Source: a virus
Lineage: Duplodnaviria > Caudoviricetes
IMG/VR virus record: IMGVR_UViG_3300030330_000465
Location: 1 to 24,235 of that record
Length of the DNA stretch: 24,235 bases
Strand: one strand, 5' to 3'
Position numbers and translations under genes: made by a program. Shown here piece by piece: positions 1 through 16,952 of this stretch. Every line of letters starts with the position of its first letter. Within the stretch, counting starts at the first letter, position 1. The notes under the pieces are model-generated. The model was not told the origin of the DNA. It was given only the letters and a program-made list of their open reading frames with translations, and searched no databases.

Positions 1-236
1 CTGAGTCAGCCGGAAGCGAGCCGAAGTTGCCCCCTCGGCCACTTGATACGGAACTCCGTATTTTCGACCAATTCTTTTTCCATTAGTTGTAATCTAGTGT
101 CAGCAATATTCAGACGTTCTATAATCTGGAAATAGCCCATGGTGCCGAGTGCCACGATGATAATCAAACTGGCAACCGTCTTCATAGGCATCTGGACGGC
201 TGCCGATTCTGAAATACTGAGTGGTTTTTTATCCAT
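1..236 (-). CDS. Small membrane protein (one TM helix plus coiled coil); probably runs off the left edge, with an apparent 1-nt frameshift near 23-25
   Basis: ATG 3 nt after the upstream stop. Hydrophobic VASLIIIVALGTMGYF is followed by a heptad-like segment. Removing one base at 23-25 reads ...KWPRGQLGSLPADS to the window edge. Confidence 0.7.
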
Positions 237-239
237 AAA

Positions 240-443
240 TTATTTTGGTAATGCGCTTTTCATCCATCCAATTACTTTTCTGAATGGCCATGAAATGATT
301 ATCCAAATCCATTTTATAATTTTTTTAATCATGTTTTCCTCCTCTTTATGTTCACATACAATACATCCACATCCACCATCTAATGGATTTGCATCGCATT
401 TATCACCACAATGGCAATCGTGATCACAAGTTATACAAATCAT
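240..443 (-). CDS. Small Cys/His-rich protein with a C-terminal Trp/Lys amphipathic helix
   Basis: ATGA overlap with the upstream gene. CITCDHDCHCGDKC...CGCIVCEH, then MIKKIIKWIWIIISWPFRKVIGWMK. An internal ATG at 332 is preceded by GAGGAGG. Confidence 0.7.
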   Translation of the reverse strand: MICITCDHDCHCGDKCDANPLDGGCGCIVCEHKEEENMIKKIIKWIWIIISWPFRKVIGWMKSALPK

Positions 444-1087
444 TTTTTCTTCTCCTCAATTTCATAAAAGAATTTATCAGTATCTTCTGTTCTCCACTGA
501 CTAGTATCTTCTACATTCCATTCGTTAGTTTGCACTTTCCAATCTGGAATATTATCTTTCACAGTAAATGAAGGTATATCCCATATACATCTATTGTTTG
601 GTTGTGCTGCATAATTACCATCATCTAATGCAATTATGTGTGCGCACTTATGTTCGTGCGGTATCTCTGAATGATCAGTATCAAGTATGTTAGCCTCTGG
701 ATGTGCAAAGTCAACAGTAAATAAATATTTACCAGGGTGCCATTTTTTATCTTTTCCTATATACTTGCCAGCTTGTCCGTCTAAAATATCCCAACTAGTA
801 ACAGCAGGATAATAACTAAAACAATTCCATAACTGAAGTTCATCAAGTCTACGTTTAGGAACATCTTCCGATCTAAAACCTCTCTGTATGAAGGCAGATA
901 TCGGGAGACGATAAAAGACAGCGCCATTCTCCATAATCGCATGCCATAAAATAGACCGTCCAGTAATAGCTGAAAGACCAAAGATAACACAGTCTTCAAC
1001 TTCTCCATGATGTTTTTGTAAGTCATATAAATATTCCCTCCTTATTTGAGCATAGGTTACAGGTATGTTTGCATTCAAGTAAGCCAT
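440..1087 (-). CDS. Conserved hypothetical phage protein (215 aa)
   Basis: Long ORF coupled to the polA stop (TAATG); globular composition; HxHxCxH-like segment (PHEHKCAH). Confidence 0.9.
   Translation of the reverse strand: MAYLNANIPVTYAQIRREYLYDLQKHHGEVEDCVIFGLSAITGRSILWHAIMENGAVFYRLPISAFIQRGFRSEDVPKRRLDELQLWNCFSYYPAVTSWDILDGQAGKYIGKDKKWHPGKYLFTVDFAHPEANILDTDHSEIPHEHKCAHIIALDDGNYAAQPNNRCIWDIPSFTVKDNIPDWKVQTNEWNVEDTSQWRTEDTDKFFYEIEEKKK
781..1026 (-). CDS. Candidate overprinted membrane protein nested out of frame in 440..1087
   Basis: 81-codon ORF; AAGGAGG at 1043-1037, 10 nt before the ATG; C-terminal TM segment FSYGIVLVIILLLLVGIF. Confidence 0.5.
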   Translation of the reverse strand: MTYKNIMEKLKTVLSLVFQLLLDGLFYGMRLWRMALSFIVSRYLPSYREVLDRKMFLNVDLMNFSYGIVLVIILLLLVGIF

Positions 1088-3006
1088 TATTTAATATTAC
1101 CCCAATTGGATCCAAACTCGTAGTCTACCTTATTTGGTACTTCTAAGTCAACCGCGTTCTCCATTATGTCTTTTATCTTTGCGGCTTCTAGATCGTTAAC
1201 TACAGATATATCAAGTTCATCATGAACTTGTATATGTGGTGTAATACCTTCCTTATGTAATTCTAACATAGCTTTTTTAGTCATGTCTGCTGCGGATCCT
1301 TGTATTAATCTATTTAAAGCTTTGTATGTAAAAGCTCTACGTGTTGGATTTTCATGCCAATAATTTTTCTTTTCTGTTTTGTTTCCTTCTTCATCTAATA
1401 TGTAAGGACCCATTTCTTGTAGTTCTAACATTCTTTCGTGATCTTCTGCTGGAACAAATTTACCCCAATCATCTCCCCTTAAAACCGGTTCATATTTAAA
1501 AAACCTGCAACGTCTTCCTAATAATGTTTTTATTTGTCCCTTATTCTGTGCTGCTGACATAACTTTATTCATTAACTGTTTTACAAAAGGAACTCTTCCA
1601 TGATATTTATTAAATAGTTCTTGTGCTTTTTCTTGTGTTACACCTAACTCTGCTTGCAGTTTTGCTTTACCCATACCATAAAATAAACCTAAATTAATTA
1701 CTTTAGCTTGTGATCTAGGTATCTCCGCCATGTCTGCAACTATTTTATGAAAGTCAGTTGATGGATCATTTTCGTAAGAGTCAGCTATCGTATTCACAGA
1801 AGGTAATCTAAATTTAAGTGCATAATGTGCAACAAGTCTTGGTTCCTGTTGCGAGTAATCAAAGCACCCCCACTTCATACCTTCTTCTGGTATAAACAAA
1901 GATCTAATTAAAGGACCTGTATCAGGATCTCTTGCTGGTATTTGTTGTAGGTTTGGATTTATATAACTAAATCTACCAGTCACAGTGCCACCATCATCTG
2001 ATCTTATTTGATTTATTTCTGAGTGTATTCTACCATTGTGTTCGTATTTAATTATTGAATCAATAAATGTCGTTCTAACCTTGTTTATTTTTCTAGCTTC
2101 TGCTATCTTTTGAACTAAAGGATGTGGATGATTAACAAGAAAATTTTTAGTAAAAGATGGCTCATCTGATTTTACAGTTCTGGAATAAGGTAGTTTTAAT
2201 TTATCAAAAAGTTTGGCAATTGATCTTGCTGCCATTAATTGAACATCTATGTTACTTTCTTTTTTTATGTCTCTCAGGATTAATTTTTCTCTGTATTCTA
2301 AGTCTTGCTTTAGTGTATGAGCTCTTTCAGCATCGACTCTCACACCAAGAAATCTCATGTCAACCAGACAAGGAAAAAGATCAGTCTCCAAATCAAATAT
2401 AGATTGTAAGTTATCTTCTATAATTATATTTTTTACTTTACCCCAAAGTTCTAAAGTTAGTTCTGCATCTTTCTCTGCGTATGCACCAACTTCCATAGGT
2501 GGTAGTCTCCACATATCTGCTTTTGGATCTAATCCTCTTTCTTTTGCAGCTTTAATTAATTTGGATTCATTCTTTCCTTTATTAAGGTGATGCCAAGACA
2601 AAGTATTTAATGTGTATGAGTATCTGTTTTCATCTATAAGTGATGATGCAATCATAGTATCTACTATTAAACCATTGATTTTTATACCTAATTTTCGTAG
2701 CCAACATACGTCATACATGGCATTATGAAATATTTTTAATGATGGTGCATTACATATATCTTGCAACCATTCTAAAGTTTTCTTTTTGTCCATATTAGGA
2801 CCTTGTTCATGAGCTATCGGAAAATAACCTGACCATCCTTCTACGGCTACAGCTATACCAACTACATAGCCATTACCAATTACAGATCCTGATCCACTAG
2901 ATTTTAAATCTGGATCGTAAGTTTCTAAATCTATAGCAATCTCATCATAAGATCGTAGATCAGGATATTCTTCTGGCTGTAGCCATTCTGTTTCTGGTAA
3001 TATCAT
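1087..3006 (-). CDS. polA: Family A DNA polymerase with 3'-5' exonuclease (Leu762 type)
   Basis: Exo motifs DLET, FHNAMYD, YAEKDA; TVTGRFS..NPNLQQIP; motif A DYSQQEPR; motif B RSQAKVINLGLFYG; motif C QVHDEL. Confidence 0.97.
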   Translation of the reverse strand: MILPETEWLQPEEYPDLRSYDEIAIDLETYDPDLKSSGSGSVIGNGYVVGIAVAVEGWSGYFPIAHEQGPNMDKKKTLEWLQDICNAPSLKIFHNAMYDVCWLRKLGIKINGLIVDTMIASSLIDENRYSYTLNTLSWHHLNKGKNESKLIKAAKERGLDPKADMWRLPPMEVGAYAEKDAELTLELWGKVKNIIIEDNLQSIFDLETDLFPCLVDMRFLGVRVDAERAHTLKQDLEYREKLILRDIKKESNIDVQLMAARSIAKLFDKLKLPYSRTVKSDEPSFTKNFLVNHPHPLVQKIAEARKINKVRTTFIDSIIKYEHNGRIHSEINQIRSDDGGTVTGRFSYINPNLQQIPARDPDTGPLIRSLFIPEEGMKWGCFDYSQQEPRLVAHYALKFRLPSVNTIADSYENDPSTDFHKIVADMAEIPRSQAKVINLGLFYGMGKAKLQAELGVTQEKAQELFNKYHGRVPFVKQLMNKVMSAAQNKGQIKTLLGRRCRFFKYEPVLRGDDWGKFVPAEDHERMLELQEMGPYILDEEGNKTEKKNYWHENPTRRAFTYKALNRLIQGSAADMTKKAMLELHKEGITPHIQVHDELDISVVNDLEAAKIKDIMENAVDLEVPNKVDYEFGSNWGNIK

Positions 3007-3245
3007 TTTTTAGAATCTTTCAATTTTAACATTTCTAATTGACAGTAATGTATTATTTTTTCTAAATCTTGTATACCACCTTTTCGCTGATAGCGACAAA
3101 CATATTTCACTACGTTTCCTTGAAAAAATGATAGATCATTTTTAGAAATAAACTCATACGGTTGAATAGGAAATTTAGTGTAGTGATTTCCTCCTACTTG
3201 AGTAAATTGTGGAAACGCTTCCTCAAATATATCTTTTGTTGTCAT
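3003..3245 (-). CDS. DUF3310 family protein (T7 gp1.7-like putative nucleotide kinase)
   Basis: QVGGNHY...IQPYEFI...FFQGNVVKYVCRY..KGG.QDLEK..HY signature; ATGA overlaps on both sides. Confidence 0.85.
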   Translation of the reverse strand: MTTKDIFEEAFPQFTQVGGNHYTKFPIQPYEFISKNDLSFFQGNVVKYVCRYQRKGGIQDLEKIIHYCQLEMLKLKDSKK

Positions 3246-4663
3246 AAACTATACTCCTTTCTTTTTATTTTTGATTTTAGTTTATATAAATTATTACGTG
3301 CTCTCGTAATTCCTACGTACCAAACTCTATGTTCTTCATCTCTTTTTTCTAAACTACGTTTGATAGATTTTTGTATTTTATCTCCTTGATGCAATGCTAA
3401 AATTACGTTATCACCTTCACCACCTTTTATCGCGTGTATTGTAGATAAAAATATTCTAGCATCTTCATTTAAATTTTCATTATTTTCTAACATATTTCTT
3501 ATATATATTTTTTCTTTTTCGGGAGCTGCAGTAAAAACTTCGTACCATTTTTTATTTTTATTCCAAAATTTAGAATTCGGTATGTATTCTTTTATATATT
3601 TTATATCTTGATCATTTATATCTTTATCCTCACACCATTTTGTATATGCTAAAGCTGCTTTATATATGGCTACTTTATAACTTTTTCCTTTGTTAGTTTG
3701 ATAATATAAATTTTTTTTTCTAACTTCTTTCATGAGTTCTAATAATTGACTCTTGGTTCTTGATAATATTAACCACTTACCTTTATTTAAATCTACTTGA
3801 CCTAGATTAGATATGTAAACTGATTTACCATGATAATCTCTTGCTAGATAAAATTTTTCTTTTCTGACTCCACGTATTTTACCTATTGGGAAACTTGATT
3901 CTAATTGTACACACAAAGATACTCTTCTTGATTTTTCTAGGACTCTTTCTTTTGCAGGCTCTTCTACAAATCTTTTTACATCTGCTCCAGCCCATGCAAA
4001 TATAGCCTGATCATCATCACCGGCTAAATAAATATCTTTACTTTTCTCTTTTAATTTATCGTACAGCTTCCATTGTAATGGTGATAGATCTTGTGCTTCG
4101 TCTACAAATACAACATCAAACTTTGGAACCTTTGGCAAAACCTTATTTATGATATCATTAAAGTCATATAGACCTGCACTTTCTTTATATTTTAAAAGAT
4201 TGTCATGTATGTGTTTTAATGTGTGCCACTGTATTTCTTTTCTGTCATGTTCGTTTCTATCAAATTCTTCTCTGATAGACACATCTCTATTTATAGCACG
4301 CCCTATCATTTGAAAATATGGATCATTACAAGTTAAAAAATGTGTTTCTTCTTCATTGTATTTATCTGTGTATTTAACTCTAATGCCTAATTTTTTTCCT
4401 AACTCTTCATAGTGATATGGTTGCATTATATTTTCTTCTTGTAAACCTAGAGTATTAAATGCAAAAGAATGTAGTGTTTGAAAATGCACTAACTTTTTAT
4501 CCTCTATTGGCATTCTTTCTTTTGCTTCCTTTGCAGCTTTTCTTGTAAAAGCAAAATAGCCTATCTTATGTAAAGGTGTCCCTATTCTAACGTATGCTTT
4601 TGCTCTATTAATTAATTTATGAGTTTTTCCTGTTCCAGGTGGTCCATAATATTTATATATCAT
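3242..4663 (-). CDS. UvrD/Rep-like superfamily 1 helicase
   Basis: GPPGTGKT, AFTRKAA, TLHS, VFVDEAQD, AGDDDQAIF, STIHAIKGGE, YVGITRAR. Confidence 0.93.
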   Translation of the reverse strand: MIYKYYGPPGTGKTHKLINRAKAYVRIGTPLHKIGYFAFTRKAAKEAKERMPIEDKKLVHFQTLHSFAFNTLGLQEENIMQPYHYEELGKKLGIRVKYTDKYNEEETHFLTCNDPYFQMIGRAINRDVSIREEFDRNEHDRKEIQWHTLKHIHDNLLKYKESAGLYDFNDIINKVLPKVPKFDVVFVDEAQDLSPLQWKLYDKLKEKSKDIYLAGDDDQAIFAWAGADVKRFVEEPAKERVLEKSRRVSLCVQLESSFPIGKIRGVRKEKFYLARDYHGKSVYISNLGQVDLNKGKWLILSRTKSQLLELMKEVRKKNLYYQTNKGKSYKVAIYKAALAYTKWCEDKDINDQDIKYIKEYIPNSKFWNKNKKWYEVFTAAPEKEKIYIRNMLENNENLNEDARIFLSTIHAIKGGEGDNVILALHQGDKIQKSIKRSLEKRDEEHRVWYVGITRARNNLYKLKSKIKRKEYSL

Positions 4664-14719: not shown

Positions 14720-15540
14720 TATGCTGGTCTCTGTACTGGGTTAAGAGTTCTGTATATACCGGCTAAACCTGCTCCTGCACTAATTAAAGATTGTAGTCCG
14801 CTTGGATTAGGTGTTACCTCCTGAACTGATTTACCAGGATAACCTGCAATCAATTGAGTCACGCCGGAACCATATTGTTGTGCAGCTGTTAATGGCTGCA
14901 TTAGGTTTTGAATATTTAATTGTTGTTGTGCTCCTAACTCAGACTGTTTTTGTTGTTGTAATGCACCACCTAAAGTAGTTAGACCTGCAATTTGTTGTCC
15001 TTGTAATGCAGGTGTTGTTGAAGCTAAAGTTAATTGATTTTGTAAATCTCTTTGTGCACCTTGTTGTGCTTGTTGAAATCCTTGTGCTAGTAATTGTGCT
15101 TGTAATGCGGCTCTGTTTCTATCTGATGTAGATCTAAACTCTGCTTCTTGAACGGCTTGTCTATCACCACCAAAAGCTCCCGCGGCTACAGCCCTATCTC
15201 TTATACCACCTAGACCTCTTTGTGCTTGTAAATCAAATTCTGATAGTGTTGCATCTATTACATCTCTTTGAAATGGAGACATAAATTCTTTAAATGCATC
15301 TGGACCAGTTCTACTTGCCGCTGTTTGCAAGAATGGTTTGAATGAATCTAAACCTGATTGTAAATCTTTTACGGCTCTTTGTTGTAAAGGATCTAGACCC
15401 GCTACAAATTGTGGACCATATACTTTGGAAAGATCAGCTGATTTAAAATCACCTGTTGCTTTTGATAGATCACTTAAAAACGTCTTACCGGCAGCTTCTA
15501 TAAACTCCGGTGGTCTAACTCTAGTTTCTGATACTGCCAT
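14719..15540 (-). CDS. Gln/Ala-rich helical ejection (DNA pilot-like) protein
   Basis: AGAFGGDRQAV..AE, Q-rich helices, C-terminal hydrophobic LISAGAGLAGIY; TAATG coupling. Confidence 0.7.
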   Translation of the reverse strand: MAVSETRVRPPEFIEAAGKTFLSDLSKATGDFKSADLSKVYGPQFVAGLDPLQQRAVKDLQSGLDSFKPFLQTAASRTGPDAFKEFMSPFQRDVIDATLSEFDLQAQRGLGGIRDRAVAAGAFGGDRQAVQEAEFRSTSDRNRAALQAQLLAQGFQQAQQGAQRDLQNQLTLASTTPALQGQQIAGLTTLGGALQQQKQSELGAQQQLNIQNLMQPLTAAQQYGSGVTQLIAGYPGKSVQEVTPNPSGLQSLISAGAGLAGIYRTLNPVQRPA

Positions 15541-16952
15541 TATACTCTTCCTCCATTTTCTAATTTTTTCATCATATCATACATACGTTGAGCGCCTTTA
15601 TTAACGTCACCGTCACCCATTCCTCTTACAGCATCAGCTGTAAATACAAATTCGTTATTTGAAAGCATCGCAGGGATGTCGTCAGCCTTTTCTTTTACAC
15701 CAACTGGAGGAATAAATCCACCTGTTTCTCTAAGATCTAGCTCAGTAATTCCTGCTGGATTTTCGTTTAAAGGTAGGCCCATGACGCCTGCTGCCTGCAT
15801 TGCGTTATCTTCTGCTGAGTCTCCTCTAGCATAACCTATTCTACCGCCTTCTGCCTTTCCTTCTTTAAATATTTTAAAAAGTTCTAGTGGTGCTTTTTGA
15901 CCTTCAAAATCTTTTTCTGTTTGTAAGAAATCTTTGGGCACTAGATCCATATCAAGACCATATAAAGATTGGCCAATTTTTCCACTTTCTCTAATACCTG
16001 ACGGACTTTTTCCTGCAGCTTTTTGTTTTGTAGCAAAATCAAAATATTTTTGCATAGCATCAAATTTATCTCCTCCAAAAAATTTAGTTTTTTCAGCTTC
16101 TATATTTAATAAATCGTCATAGTCTTTATAAACTTTTGCAAACATTTGTTGATCCATTAAACTTTTAGAACCTGGGAATCCAAAATTCATTTCTGCAAAG
16201 CTAGGTAATCCTATGTTTTTTTGTTCTGGAGCATCAAATCTATTTCTTTGTTGTGGGCTGTCGCCTCTTCTATTATTACCACCACCAATAGAACTAGTAT
16301 TTGTTCCACTTCTTTGTTTACCACCACTGCCCATTGCTCTATCTCTGGCTGAAGTAGACCGTCCTTTTGATGCCCCACCTTTACCTGTTTTAGCATCACT
16401 TCCTTGATATCCTCCACCAAATCTATAACCAATACGTCCACCATCTGACATGTATTCTACCATGTTAGATTCTACTAATTGATTTATTCTAGCTTCGTAT
16501 TCTTCGTCCTCTTCGTTATCTCTTTGTGGATTTAAATTTGTAAAATATTCTTTTAAGTAACTTCTTATTGCAGGCGTATTTACACCAAATGATCCTACCT
16601 GTGGTTGAGGCATACCTCCACCTAAAAGTTTTCCTAAACCAACTGATCCGACAAATTTACTCATAAAAGGTAAATTTTTTATATTAGGTAATATGTTAGC
16701 TGCTTTAAAACCTGTGCCAGCTATTCCTGGTAAACTTTTACCAAAGAATGTCCCACCACCTAAACCATATAATGCACCGGCTGTAAGAGCCATTTTACCT
16801 GCATCAGATTTGATAAAACTACCAATACCTTTAGCGACACCTTTGATAGCTTTCTTAAGTCCCCCTAAAAATGCTTCTTCTCTAGGCACGATATTCATAA
16901 TACCACCGCCCATACGTAATTGTCTTTCCATCATTCCTCTAGATATTGGCAT
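15540..16952 (-). CDS. Putative internal virion protein with GGRIGY repeats and a C-terminal DDIPAMLSNNEFV domain
   Basis: Gly-rich amphipathic N-terminus and two GGRIGY motifs. The C-terminal block resembles the DSIPAMLSNGEFV segment of many tape-measure/ejection proteins. Confidence 0.7.
   Translation of the reverse strand: MPISRGMMERQLRMGGGIMNIVPREEAFLGGLKKAIKGVAKGIGSFIKSDAGKMALTAGALYGLGGGTFFGKSLPGIAGTGFKAANILPNIKNLPFMSKFVGSVGLGKLLGGGMPQPQVGSFGVNTPAIRSYLKEYFTNLNPQRDNEEDEEYEARINQLVESNMVEYMSDGGRIGYRFGGGYQGSDAKTGKGGASKGRSTSARDRAMGSGGKQRSGTNTSSIGGGNNRRGDSPQQRNRFDAPEQKNIGLPSFAEMNFGFPGSKSLMDQQMFAKVYKDYDDLLNIEAEKTKFFGGDKFDAMQKYFDFATKQKAAGKSPSGIRESGKIGQSLYGLDMDLVPKDFLQTEKDFEGQKAPLELFKIFKEGKAEGGRIGYARGDSAEDNAMQAAGVMGLPLNENPAGITELDLRETGGFIPPVGVKEKADDIPAMLSNNEFVFTADAVRGMGDGDVNKGAQRMYDMMKKLENGGRV

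Follow-up and report, generated by a model that had tools for sequence, protein, structure and literature searches.

A candidate overprinted membrane-protein gene nested in the purM-like gene of HTVC023P-type pelagiphages

Nested lysis genes are classic examples of one phage gene lying inside another. In phage lambda, the o-spanin gene Rz1 is embedded in the i-spanin gene Rz, in the +1 frame and with its own start. The phiX174 gene E, located inside D, and the MS2 gene L, which lies across the coat and replicase genes, encode single-gene lysis proteins, which are membrane proteins of 75-91 residues. To our knowledge, few overprinted genes of large double-stranded DNA (dsDNA) phages, beyond pairs of the Rz/Rz1 type, have been documented with comparative evidence. 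We analyzed a stretch of 24,235 nucleotides from a tailed phage (IMG/VR record IMGVR_UViG_3300030330_000465, positions 1 to 24,235; hereafter the window), in which an open reading frame (ORF) is nested in a purM-like gene. The nested ORF is a further case, which we have not found described: the literature searched on HTVC023P, pelagiphages and overlapping genes, including PMC9599517 and bioRxiv 10.1101/2019.12.14.876532 but with bioRxiv supplements outside the scope of the search, yielded no description of it.

The nested ORF and its features are listed below. The gene that contains it is referred to as the host gene, and its product as the host protein; pLDDT denotes the predicted local distance difference test score.

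440..1087, minus strand: host gene, 215 amino acids, the older frame (phrog_3704, E = 2.8e-73)
781..1026, minus strand: nested gene in the +1 frame, 81 codons plus a TAG stop at 783..781 (ORF and conservation)
1037..1043, minus strand: Shine-Dalgarno (SD) sequence AAGGAGG of the nested gene, formed by host Arg-Arg AGG AGG, 10 nucleotides upstream of the ATG
1024..1026, minus strand: ATG start of the nested gene, formed by host TAT followed by G (Tyr-Asp)
976..1026, minus strand: N-terminal amphipathic, net-basic helix of the nested product, residues 1-17 (conservation; helix pLDDT 79-85)
784..843, minus strand: predicted C-terminal transmembrane helix of the nested product, residues ~62-81 (hydropathy and a bias towards T at four-fold degenerate sites)

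The conservation of the frame in three clades of relatives, and the stops found in control clades, lead us to regard 781..1026 as a real overprinted gene, and we consider it likely that it is translated into a small membrane protein. On comparative grounds, selection keeps the nested ORF intact. It overprints the purM-like gene, the older of the two, in Pelagibacter podophages of the HTVC023P type, and is restricted to one lineage and younger than the host gene. The initial annotation of the window had proposed that gene callers miss a membrane-protein gene that is overprinted here and has a ribosome-binding site of its own, and the comparison with relatives bears out this proposal as far as sequences can.

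The locus resembles the described systems in part. Like lambda Rz1, the small envelope-protein gene is entirely enclosed by another one, uses the +1 frame and its own start, and belongs to the late region of a tailed dsDNA phage. However, lambda Rz1 has a lipobox and is a lipoprotein lacking a membrane helix, and it acts in partnership with Rz, whereas the nested product has no lipobox in the clade of the window and has a predicted C-terminal membrane helix, and the host protein is modelled as a soluble protein with two beta-barrels. With phiX174 E and MS2 L it shares the characteristics of a de novo overprinted, lineage-restricted and fast-evolving membrane-protein gene in the +1 frame, and with MS2 L also the basic N-terminal half and the hydrophobic C-terminal half. 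In contrast to phiX174 and MS2, which have tiny genomes and no endolysin, the podophages considered here have genomes of ~58-61 kb and encode an M15 endolysin, so that single-gene lysis is not needed. The signatures are those of comparative overlapping-gene analyses of the synplot2 and OLGenie type, namely an open alternative frame, reduced synonymous change in the host gene and a narrower phylogenetic range (PMC8227390 and PMC6188560). Compared with the viral cases of overlapping genes, the present one is located in an abundant group of marine dsDNA phages, and in a gene that is usually counted as auxiliary metabolic.

Conservation of the nested frame

As the initial annotation stated, the 81-codon ORF starts with ATG and lies out of frame and wholly inside 440..1087; its codons begin at the second position of host codons, which places it in the +1 frame. 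The SD sequence is found where it was described, with TAAGGAGG at 1044..1037, followed by ten bases, GAATATTTAT, and the ATG at 1026..1024. The Arg-Arg pair AGG AGG that forms it is unusual in a sequence dominated by AGA, also as noted before: the 25 genes of the window use AGA 280 times, CGT 26 times, AGG 22 times, CGA 8 times, CGG 4 times and CGC once, which gives AGG a share of 22/341. SD motifs are used by other genes of the window too. The high frequency of G/C-ending host codons around 890-990, previously taken as a sign of dual coding, is present but not distinctive. The G+C fraction at third codon positions (GC3) is 0.35 for host codons 32-66, compared with 0.25 for the whole gene and 0.17 for the window genes, but it is 0.40 at host codons 130-149, outside the overlap. 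GC3 of the whole overlap (0.23) does not differ from that of the remainder of the host gene (0.26).

Relatives were collected by scanning IMG/VR with three queries, the host proteins of the window, of HTVC027P and of HTVC023P; the best 80 loci per query were taken, out of an estimated 1600-3700 stretches per scan. Because loci were chosen by the host protein, the state of the nested frame had no influence on the sampling. The relatives do not include the partial locus L105, which was dropped. The distinct sequences (222 in total) were grouped by best identity into clade A (window-like, 78), clade B (HTVC027P-like, 21) and clade C (HTVC023P-like, 123), with host protein identities down to about 60%; the cultured Pelagibacter phages HTVC027P and HTVC023P are among them. 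Within the window-like set, the pairwise nucleotide identity has a median of 80% and a minimum of 73%. Two homologous clades with a GC content of 0.34-0.35, equally sampled and with six partial loci left out, were used as controls: podophages related to 023Pt_psg01 (63 distinct sequences) and myophages related to HTVC008M (70 distinct sequences). We define a stop opportunity as a host codon at which a synonymous choice would create a stop in the +1 frame.

The +1 frame is open across the aligned stretch in 81/81, 78/79 and 74/74 sequences of the window, HTVC027P and HTVC023P query groups, respectively. In all 81 close sequences, there is no +1 stop at host codons 15-100, and a stop at codon 101. 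The nested start is ATG in 75/81 sequences of the window group (TTG in five and ACG in one), and in 79/79 and 74/74 of the other two groups. The stop column is the same in 81/81 window-like sequences, and is located three codons later in the HTVC023P-like clade. The use of stop opportunities inside the ORF and elsewhere in the host gene is as follows.

Clade A: 587 opportunities and 0 stops inside the ORF; 752 opportunities and 402 stops elsewhere in the gene
Clade B: 134 opportunities and 2 stops inside the ORF; 179 opportunities and 70 stops elsewhere in the gene
Clade C: 658 opportunities and 0 stops inside the ORF; 1203 opportunities and 436 stops elsewhere in the gene

Pooled over the three clades, two stops at 1379 opportunities inside the ORF compare with 908 at 2134 elsewhere in the host gene. 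A Fisher test at the level of sites, with one observation per site, gives p = 1.2e-4 (A), 0.04 (B) and 5.7e-4 (C). Adjacent host codons covary in a way that avoids stops: at columns 22, 37, 62 and 95 of the 81 close sequences, codons of the form xTA are found only where the next codon begins with C or T. At the end of the ORF, the Leu codon that makes the nested stop is TTA or CTA in 81/81. We simulated synonymous codon change along a tree that was built from the non-overlapping part of the host gene, and none of 2000 runs left all nine major sites free of stops; the product of the per-site probabilities is about 4e-17, at the slower of two rates.

The aligned stretch is full of stops in the control clades, where 48-61% of the opportunities are used. 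Stops occur at 315/513 opportunities in the 023Pt_psg01-like sequences, none of which is open (0/63), and at 273/572 in the HTVC008M-like sequences, of which two are open (2/70). Among the named phages compared, the ORF is present in HTVC027P (81 amino acids) and HTVC023P (84 amino acids), and absent from 023Pt_psg01, Mosig, HTVC008M, P-RSM1, Syn19 and S-TIM5. The host family extends over cyanomyophages, pelagimyophages and podophages, and the ORF is found in clades A, B and C only. In a tree of 59 host proteins, a branch with support 93/86 separates these three clades from the rest, a topology that is compatible with a single origin of the ORF on a younger branch of an older host-gene family. 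Frequent stops among homologues, which the initial annotation had named as the mark of a spurious frame, thus occur only outside the ORF-carrying clade, and the open frame, the ATG and the stop are kept in all three clades within it.

The window contains a second long ORF in the +1 frame, with 77 codons, at 16211..16444 (minus strand) inside the gene at 15540..16952. It overlies a Gly/Arg-rich stretch of a 470-residue gene product, and is broken or absent in most of the relatives checked (for example L416, L419 and L420). Judged by these sequences, it is a chance ORF, and serves as a negative control within the window.

The third position of each host codon is the second position of a nested codon; therefore, each synonymous change in the host gene alters the nested protein. 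The synonymous variability of the host gene, relative to expectation, is given below.

Clade A: N-terminal part 0.76, middle 1.14, C-terminal helix 0.82, downstream of the ORF 1.01
Clade B: N-terminal part 0.86, middle 0.86, C-terminal helix 0.66, downstream of the ORF 1.13
Clade C: N-terminal part 0.66, middle 0.90, C-terminal helix 0.82, downstream of the ORF 1.09

Outside the ORF the variability is 1.0-1.35 of expectation, and the minimum of the gene is found under the C-terminal helix. Over the whole overlap it is low in clades B (p = 4e-5) and C (p = 2e-5), and in clade A the two ends are low (N-terminal part, p = 0.02; C-terminal helix, p = 0.01). The reduced synonymous change that the initial annotation had proposed as a test was found for the overlap as a whole in B and C, and in A at the two ends but not over the full length. 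The composition of the sites points in the same direction. Four-fold degenerate host sites under the C-terminal helix carry T in 92, 90 and 87% of cases (A, B and C) and adenine in at most 1%, compared with T in 42 and 33% and adenine in 48% at the same sites of the two control clades. We attribute the T at nested second positions to the hydrophobic residues of the helix, which require T there.

The translation signals of the nested gene are also conserved, in part. The host Tyr codon that forms the start is TAT in 215 of 216 cases with Tyr, while TAC accounts for 10-70% at most Tyr columns outside the overlap. Among the 81 close sequences, only the window itself, L001, L005 and L025 share its exact SD, AAGGAGG at -17 to -11. 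What is conserved is an SD-like enrichment in G, mostly as AAGGAG or GGAG 7 nucleotides before the ATG, so that the conservation suggested by the initial annotation extends to an SD-like motif and not to the strong SD itself. These motifs arise from rare G-ending host codons in 48/78 (A), 20/20 (B) and 118/123 (C) sequences. In clades B and C, AAGGAG lies 7 nucleotides before the ATG, with Lys17 encoded by AAG in 20/20 (B) and 107/111 (C), and Glu18 by GAG in 19/20 (B) and 91/123 (C); elsewhere in the host gene, such G-ending codons mostly have frequencies of 0-30%. In clade A, AGG is used at 33-36% at Arg16/17 and at 2-11% elsewhere. Promoter- and terminator-like sites are not enriched in positions 1..3200 of the window (9 sites compared with 14.5 expected, and 0 terminators).

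Predicted product and gene neighbourhood

The nested product is a net basic protein of 81-84 residues. Residues 1-17, with the consensus M-I-L-K-N-I-x-E-K-L-K-T-V-L-S-L-V, form the amphipathic N-terminal part, which is conserved; the middle is variable, and weakly hydrophobic in some members. The uninterrupted C-terminal hydrophobic helix recognized in the initial annotation comprises the last ~20 residues in the window. By hydropathy prediction, such a segment is present in 212/212 distinct products, and the protein ends in it or right after it. Charged residues are absent from the last eight positions in 75/75 (A), 20/20 (B) and 113/117 (C) distinct products, 208/212 altogether. On the basis of hydropathy and charge, we infer that the product would be tail-anchored in the membrane, its N-terminus facing the cytoplasm. 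AlphaFold, with 61 sequences, predicts one long helix (residues 3-80, pLDDT 72.7).

No PHROG or Pfam family matches the nested product. A search of 5.8 billion protein clusters returned only 14 sporadic predictions, unnamed or oddly named and mostly from short contigs, of which two had been automatically named 'PerM permease' by the Joint Genome Institute. In the ESM Atlas, the best score for the nested product was 0.84, below the lead threshold of 0.9.

A lipobox-like motif is present in 0/75 (A), 11/20 (B) and 89/117 (C) products, and Cys31 is missing in clade A. The clade C proteins (for example L082 2562..2813) have four to six Cys residues, a CxxC motif and, in 89/117, the lipobox-like sequence L-T-S-C at residues 28-31; window-like proteins have zero to two Cys residues and neither a CxxC nor a lipobox-like motif. 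Cys31 is probably imposed by the Met-Leu codons of the host gene.

The following genes of the window flank the host gene.

1087..3006, minus strand: polA, family-A DNA polymerase gene, upstream of the host gene (PF00476, E = 9e-67)
240..443, minus strand: small gene with a Cys-rich, zinc-ribbon-like product (zinc-ribbon matches below the Pfam cut-off)
6..236, minus strand: small gene, phrog_20984, whose product has an N-terminal membrane helix and a coiled coil (PHROG match)

Its replication, Pam3-like and structural genes (PHROG/Pfam) identify the window as a fragment of a tailed-phage genome. The ATG of the host gene overlaps the polA stop (ATAATG, window 1085..1089, minus strand) and no SD precedes it, which suggests that in the clade of the window the translation of the host gene is coupled to that of polA. 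In HTVC023P, the host gene stands alone, with spacers of 94 nucleotides upstream and 188 nucleotides downstream. Close to the host start, host codon 3 (window ~1076..1078) carries a +1-frame stop in 81/81 clade A relatives; this Leu codon is never CTT or CTC in clade A (TTA 61, CTA 13, TTG 7), and is a constrained synonymous site.

The host protein (phrog_3704) has homologues in 113 phage records. Of those with a name, the homologues in the Pelagibacter phages HTVC027P and HTVC023P are the closest, with ~60% identity, and remoter ones (~40% identity) are found in pelagimyophages and many cyanomyophages. Public records label the gene 'PurM' (phosphoribosylaminoimidazole synthetase) or 'ferredoxin', and ecological surveys score it as the auxiliary metabolic gene purM (PMC9599517). 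However, neither AIRS/AIRS_C nor any other Pfam family matches the host protein at E<=0.01, and no PDB sequence matches it at E<=1. The AlphaFold2 model (pLDDT 80.3) consists of two small beta-barrel domains (residues 4-69 and 99-177). Foldseek gave no match to this fold at E<=0.001, and a wide VIA-align search gave matches to small beta-barrels (Tudor/BAH/SH3-like) only, with Z<=6.4, a range that is common for unrelated folds. The names 'PurM' and 'ferredoxin' are not supported, and counting the host gene as an auxiliary metabolic gene looks wrong.

For whole-genome context we used G001, a relative of the window that is 95% complete. The genes at 6..443 (minus strand) are the start of a block that reaches the endolysin gene in complete relatives such as G001. 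All three clades have relatives that encode an M15 endolysin (phrog_894); its gene follows downstream at a distance from the host gene of 1.6 kb in HTVC027P (B), 1.8 kb in G001 (A) and 2.8 kb in HTVC023P (C), on the same strand and with five to six genes in between. In HTVC023P the host gene has moved from the polymerase gene to a position behind the capsid gene, and the endolysin gene is still downstream. In genomes like 023Pt_psg01, which do not have the ORF, the endolysin gene lies about 8.9 kb upstream, an observation based on few genomes. The block between the host gene and the endolysin gene (L406 8288..10552) encodes the zinc-ribbon-like protein rich in Cys, two further proteins that each combine a membrane helix at the N-terminus with a coiled coil (one of them phrog_20984), and a protein of 189 residues with a lipoprotein-like signal. 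The two helix and coiled-coil proteins are candidates for i-spanin- or holin-like proteins; the lysis cassette of HTVC023P-type podophages seems to be unannotated. The endolysin of 023Pt_psg01 (W01 57584..58063) is 93% identical to that of G001 (L406 8288..8770), and the purM-like proteins of the two phages are only ~40% identical and encoded at different places, which we take as a sign of module exchange among these podophages.

RNA sequencing of HTVC027P classifies polA (gp10) as 'Middle', and the host gene (gp11), gp12, 13, 14, 16, 17 (the M15 endolysin) and 18 as 'Late', with the gp11 mRNA that carries the nested ORF abundant late in infection (PMC12753301, Table S3). We hypothesize that ribosomes would start at the internal SD and ATG on this late mRNA of the host gene. 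The resulting net-basic, all-helical product of ~81-84 residues would enter the cytoplasmic membrane with its tail first and keep its N-terminus in the cytoplasm. It would be made together with the proteins of the endolysin block downstream, and a late stage of infection is the likely time of its action.

Alternative explanations and possible function

Several observations weigh against a translated nested gene or favour the view that there is no gene at all, the frame being open by descent as a consequence of the host amino acids and AT-rich codon usage. Seen on the window sequence alone, the nested ORF is only marginally unusual: when the host gene was shuffled synonymously 20000 times, a +1 ORF of at least 81 codons starting with ATG arose 933 times (P about 0.05), and the exact nested stretch stayed open in 1.4% of the shuffles. 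The ATG derives from a Tyr-Asp motif of the host protein that is widely conserved, also in cyanophage homologues. In clade A the synonymous variability over the whole overlap is not reduced (observed/expected 1.0, p = 0.41), the middle varies freely, and 30/78 sequences have no SD core of at least 4 nucleotides. The caveat attached to the initial annotation, that the shifted frame of AT-rich genes is intrinsically somewhat hydrophobic, is justified, since the mean hydropathy of the control stretches is still positive (1.6 and 0.8). The AlphaFold2 model of the nested product, a single helix with a predicted template-modelling score of 0.35, holds no information on the fold. Relative to the window, clade A proteins are 46-67% identical for the nested product and 87-94% for the host protein; the nested protein evolves several times faster than the host protein. 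Finally, both in-frame stops come from one divergent clade B contig, L103 (host columns 23 and 75), in which the host gene is intact; either the nested gene was lost there naturally and is dispensable in at least one lineage, or the stops are sequencing errors. Descent and composition nevertheless leave too much unexplained for us to see the absence of a gene as anything but very improbable. They do not account for the near absence of stops inside the ORF next to their abundance outside, for the covariation of adjacent codons that avoids them, for the outcome of the tree-aware simulation, or for control clades of equal GC content that are full of stops. The nested stop is fixed by an xTA Leu codon in every close sequence, and only the ORF-bearing clades show the bias at four-fold sites. 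A structure, packaging or regulatory signal in the RNA or DNA could produce the two local dips in synonymous variability, but it would not explain why TAA, TAG and TGA are avoided in one particular frame along 81 codons with a freely varying middle, why the start and stop are conserved, or why nested second positions are biased towards T alone, and promoter- or terminator-like sites are not enriched; we regard such a non-coding constraint as the remotest of the explanations. Programmed +1 frameshifting from the host frame, which would fuse the host N-terminus to the membrane tail, agrees with the relation between the two frames, and upstream of the ATG the nested frame is open to host codon 9 or 3 in 29/81 close relatives. 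In the other 52/81, however, an in-frame stop lies six codons before the ATG, and the ATG and the well-spaced SD-like motif are themselves under selection. No conserved stop- or rare-codon shift site was apparent on reading the start region, a systematic search not having been made, and we give this mechanism very little credence.

A real nested gene leaves its function to be considered. Holins are small membrane proteins defined by, among other features, a hydrophilic and highly charged C-terminal tail. The nested product resembles holins, antiholins and pinholins in being small, in its predicted membrane helix, and in being encoded in the late block on the same strand, less than 3 kb upstream of the endolysin gene. 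In contrast to them, it lacks both a charged tail at the C-terminus and similarity to any family, it has one clear membrane helix at most, and its gene is not adjacent to the endolysin gene, so that of the holin hallmarks only a membrane helix in a small protein was found. The holin-like character proposed in the initial annotation is therefore not borne out. Another candidate is nearby: HTVC027P gp13, one of the proteins with a membrane helix and a coiled coil, has a weak match to a holin family (phrog_1296, E = 4.5e-4), which speaks against a role of the nested product in lysis. A spanin is rejected for the clade of the window, with a lipobox in 0/75 products, and a single-gene lysis protein is rejected in view of the M15 endolysin. 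An accessory of the membrane step of lysis, such as a holin partner, an antiholin-like timer or a small pore former, is a possible though tentative assignment; it is plausible as the most likely single function, on circumstantial evidence. The more specific proposal, that the nested gene arose de novo, supplies HTVC023P-type pelagiphages with their missing holin or antiholin and in this way executes or times the permeabilisation of the membrane, we consider unlikely. Alternatively, the gene could be real and its product membrane-targeted with a role other than lysis, in superinfection exclusion, host takeover, or as an anchor or regulator of late assembly, which is again possible and, taken by itself, somewhat doubtful. 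Such roles would fit the lack of holin hallmarks other than the membrane helix and of any family similarity, the fact that the block from the host gene to the endolysin gene encodes other candidates for a holin and a spanin, and the fast-evolving middle, as is common in proteins that interact with the bacterial host; overprinted viral genes are typically accessory. They fit less well with the late transcript class shared with the endolysin block in HTVC027P, and with the position of the host and nested genes 1.6-2.8 kb upstream of the endolysin gene in three clades despite rearrangement. Superinfection exclusion and takeover genes are, moreover, usually early. The linkage to the endolysin gene may, however, belong to the host gene instead of the nested gene, which would weaken the case for lysis.

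Implications for HTVC023P-type pelagiphages

Phages of the HTVC023P type have been described as the most abundant known type of pelagiphage (PMC12753301). A conserved gene missed by the annotations of their genomes changes the gene inventory of this group, and is a further, well-supported case of overprinting among large dsDNA phages. It would also be a clean case of gene birth, with an older frame that is widespread, a new frame on one branch and a new protein that evolves faster. If the role in lysis is true, the nested gene bears on the timing of SAR11 mortality. We speculate that, should the nested product even be the missing holin, a gene inside 'purM' that is invisible to annotation would help to set the burst time of the most abundant bacteria of the ocean.

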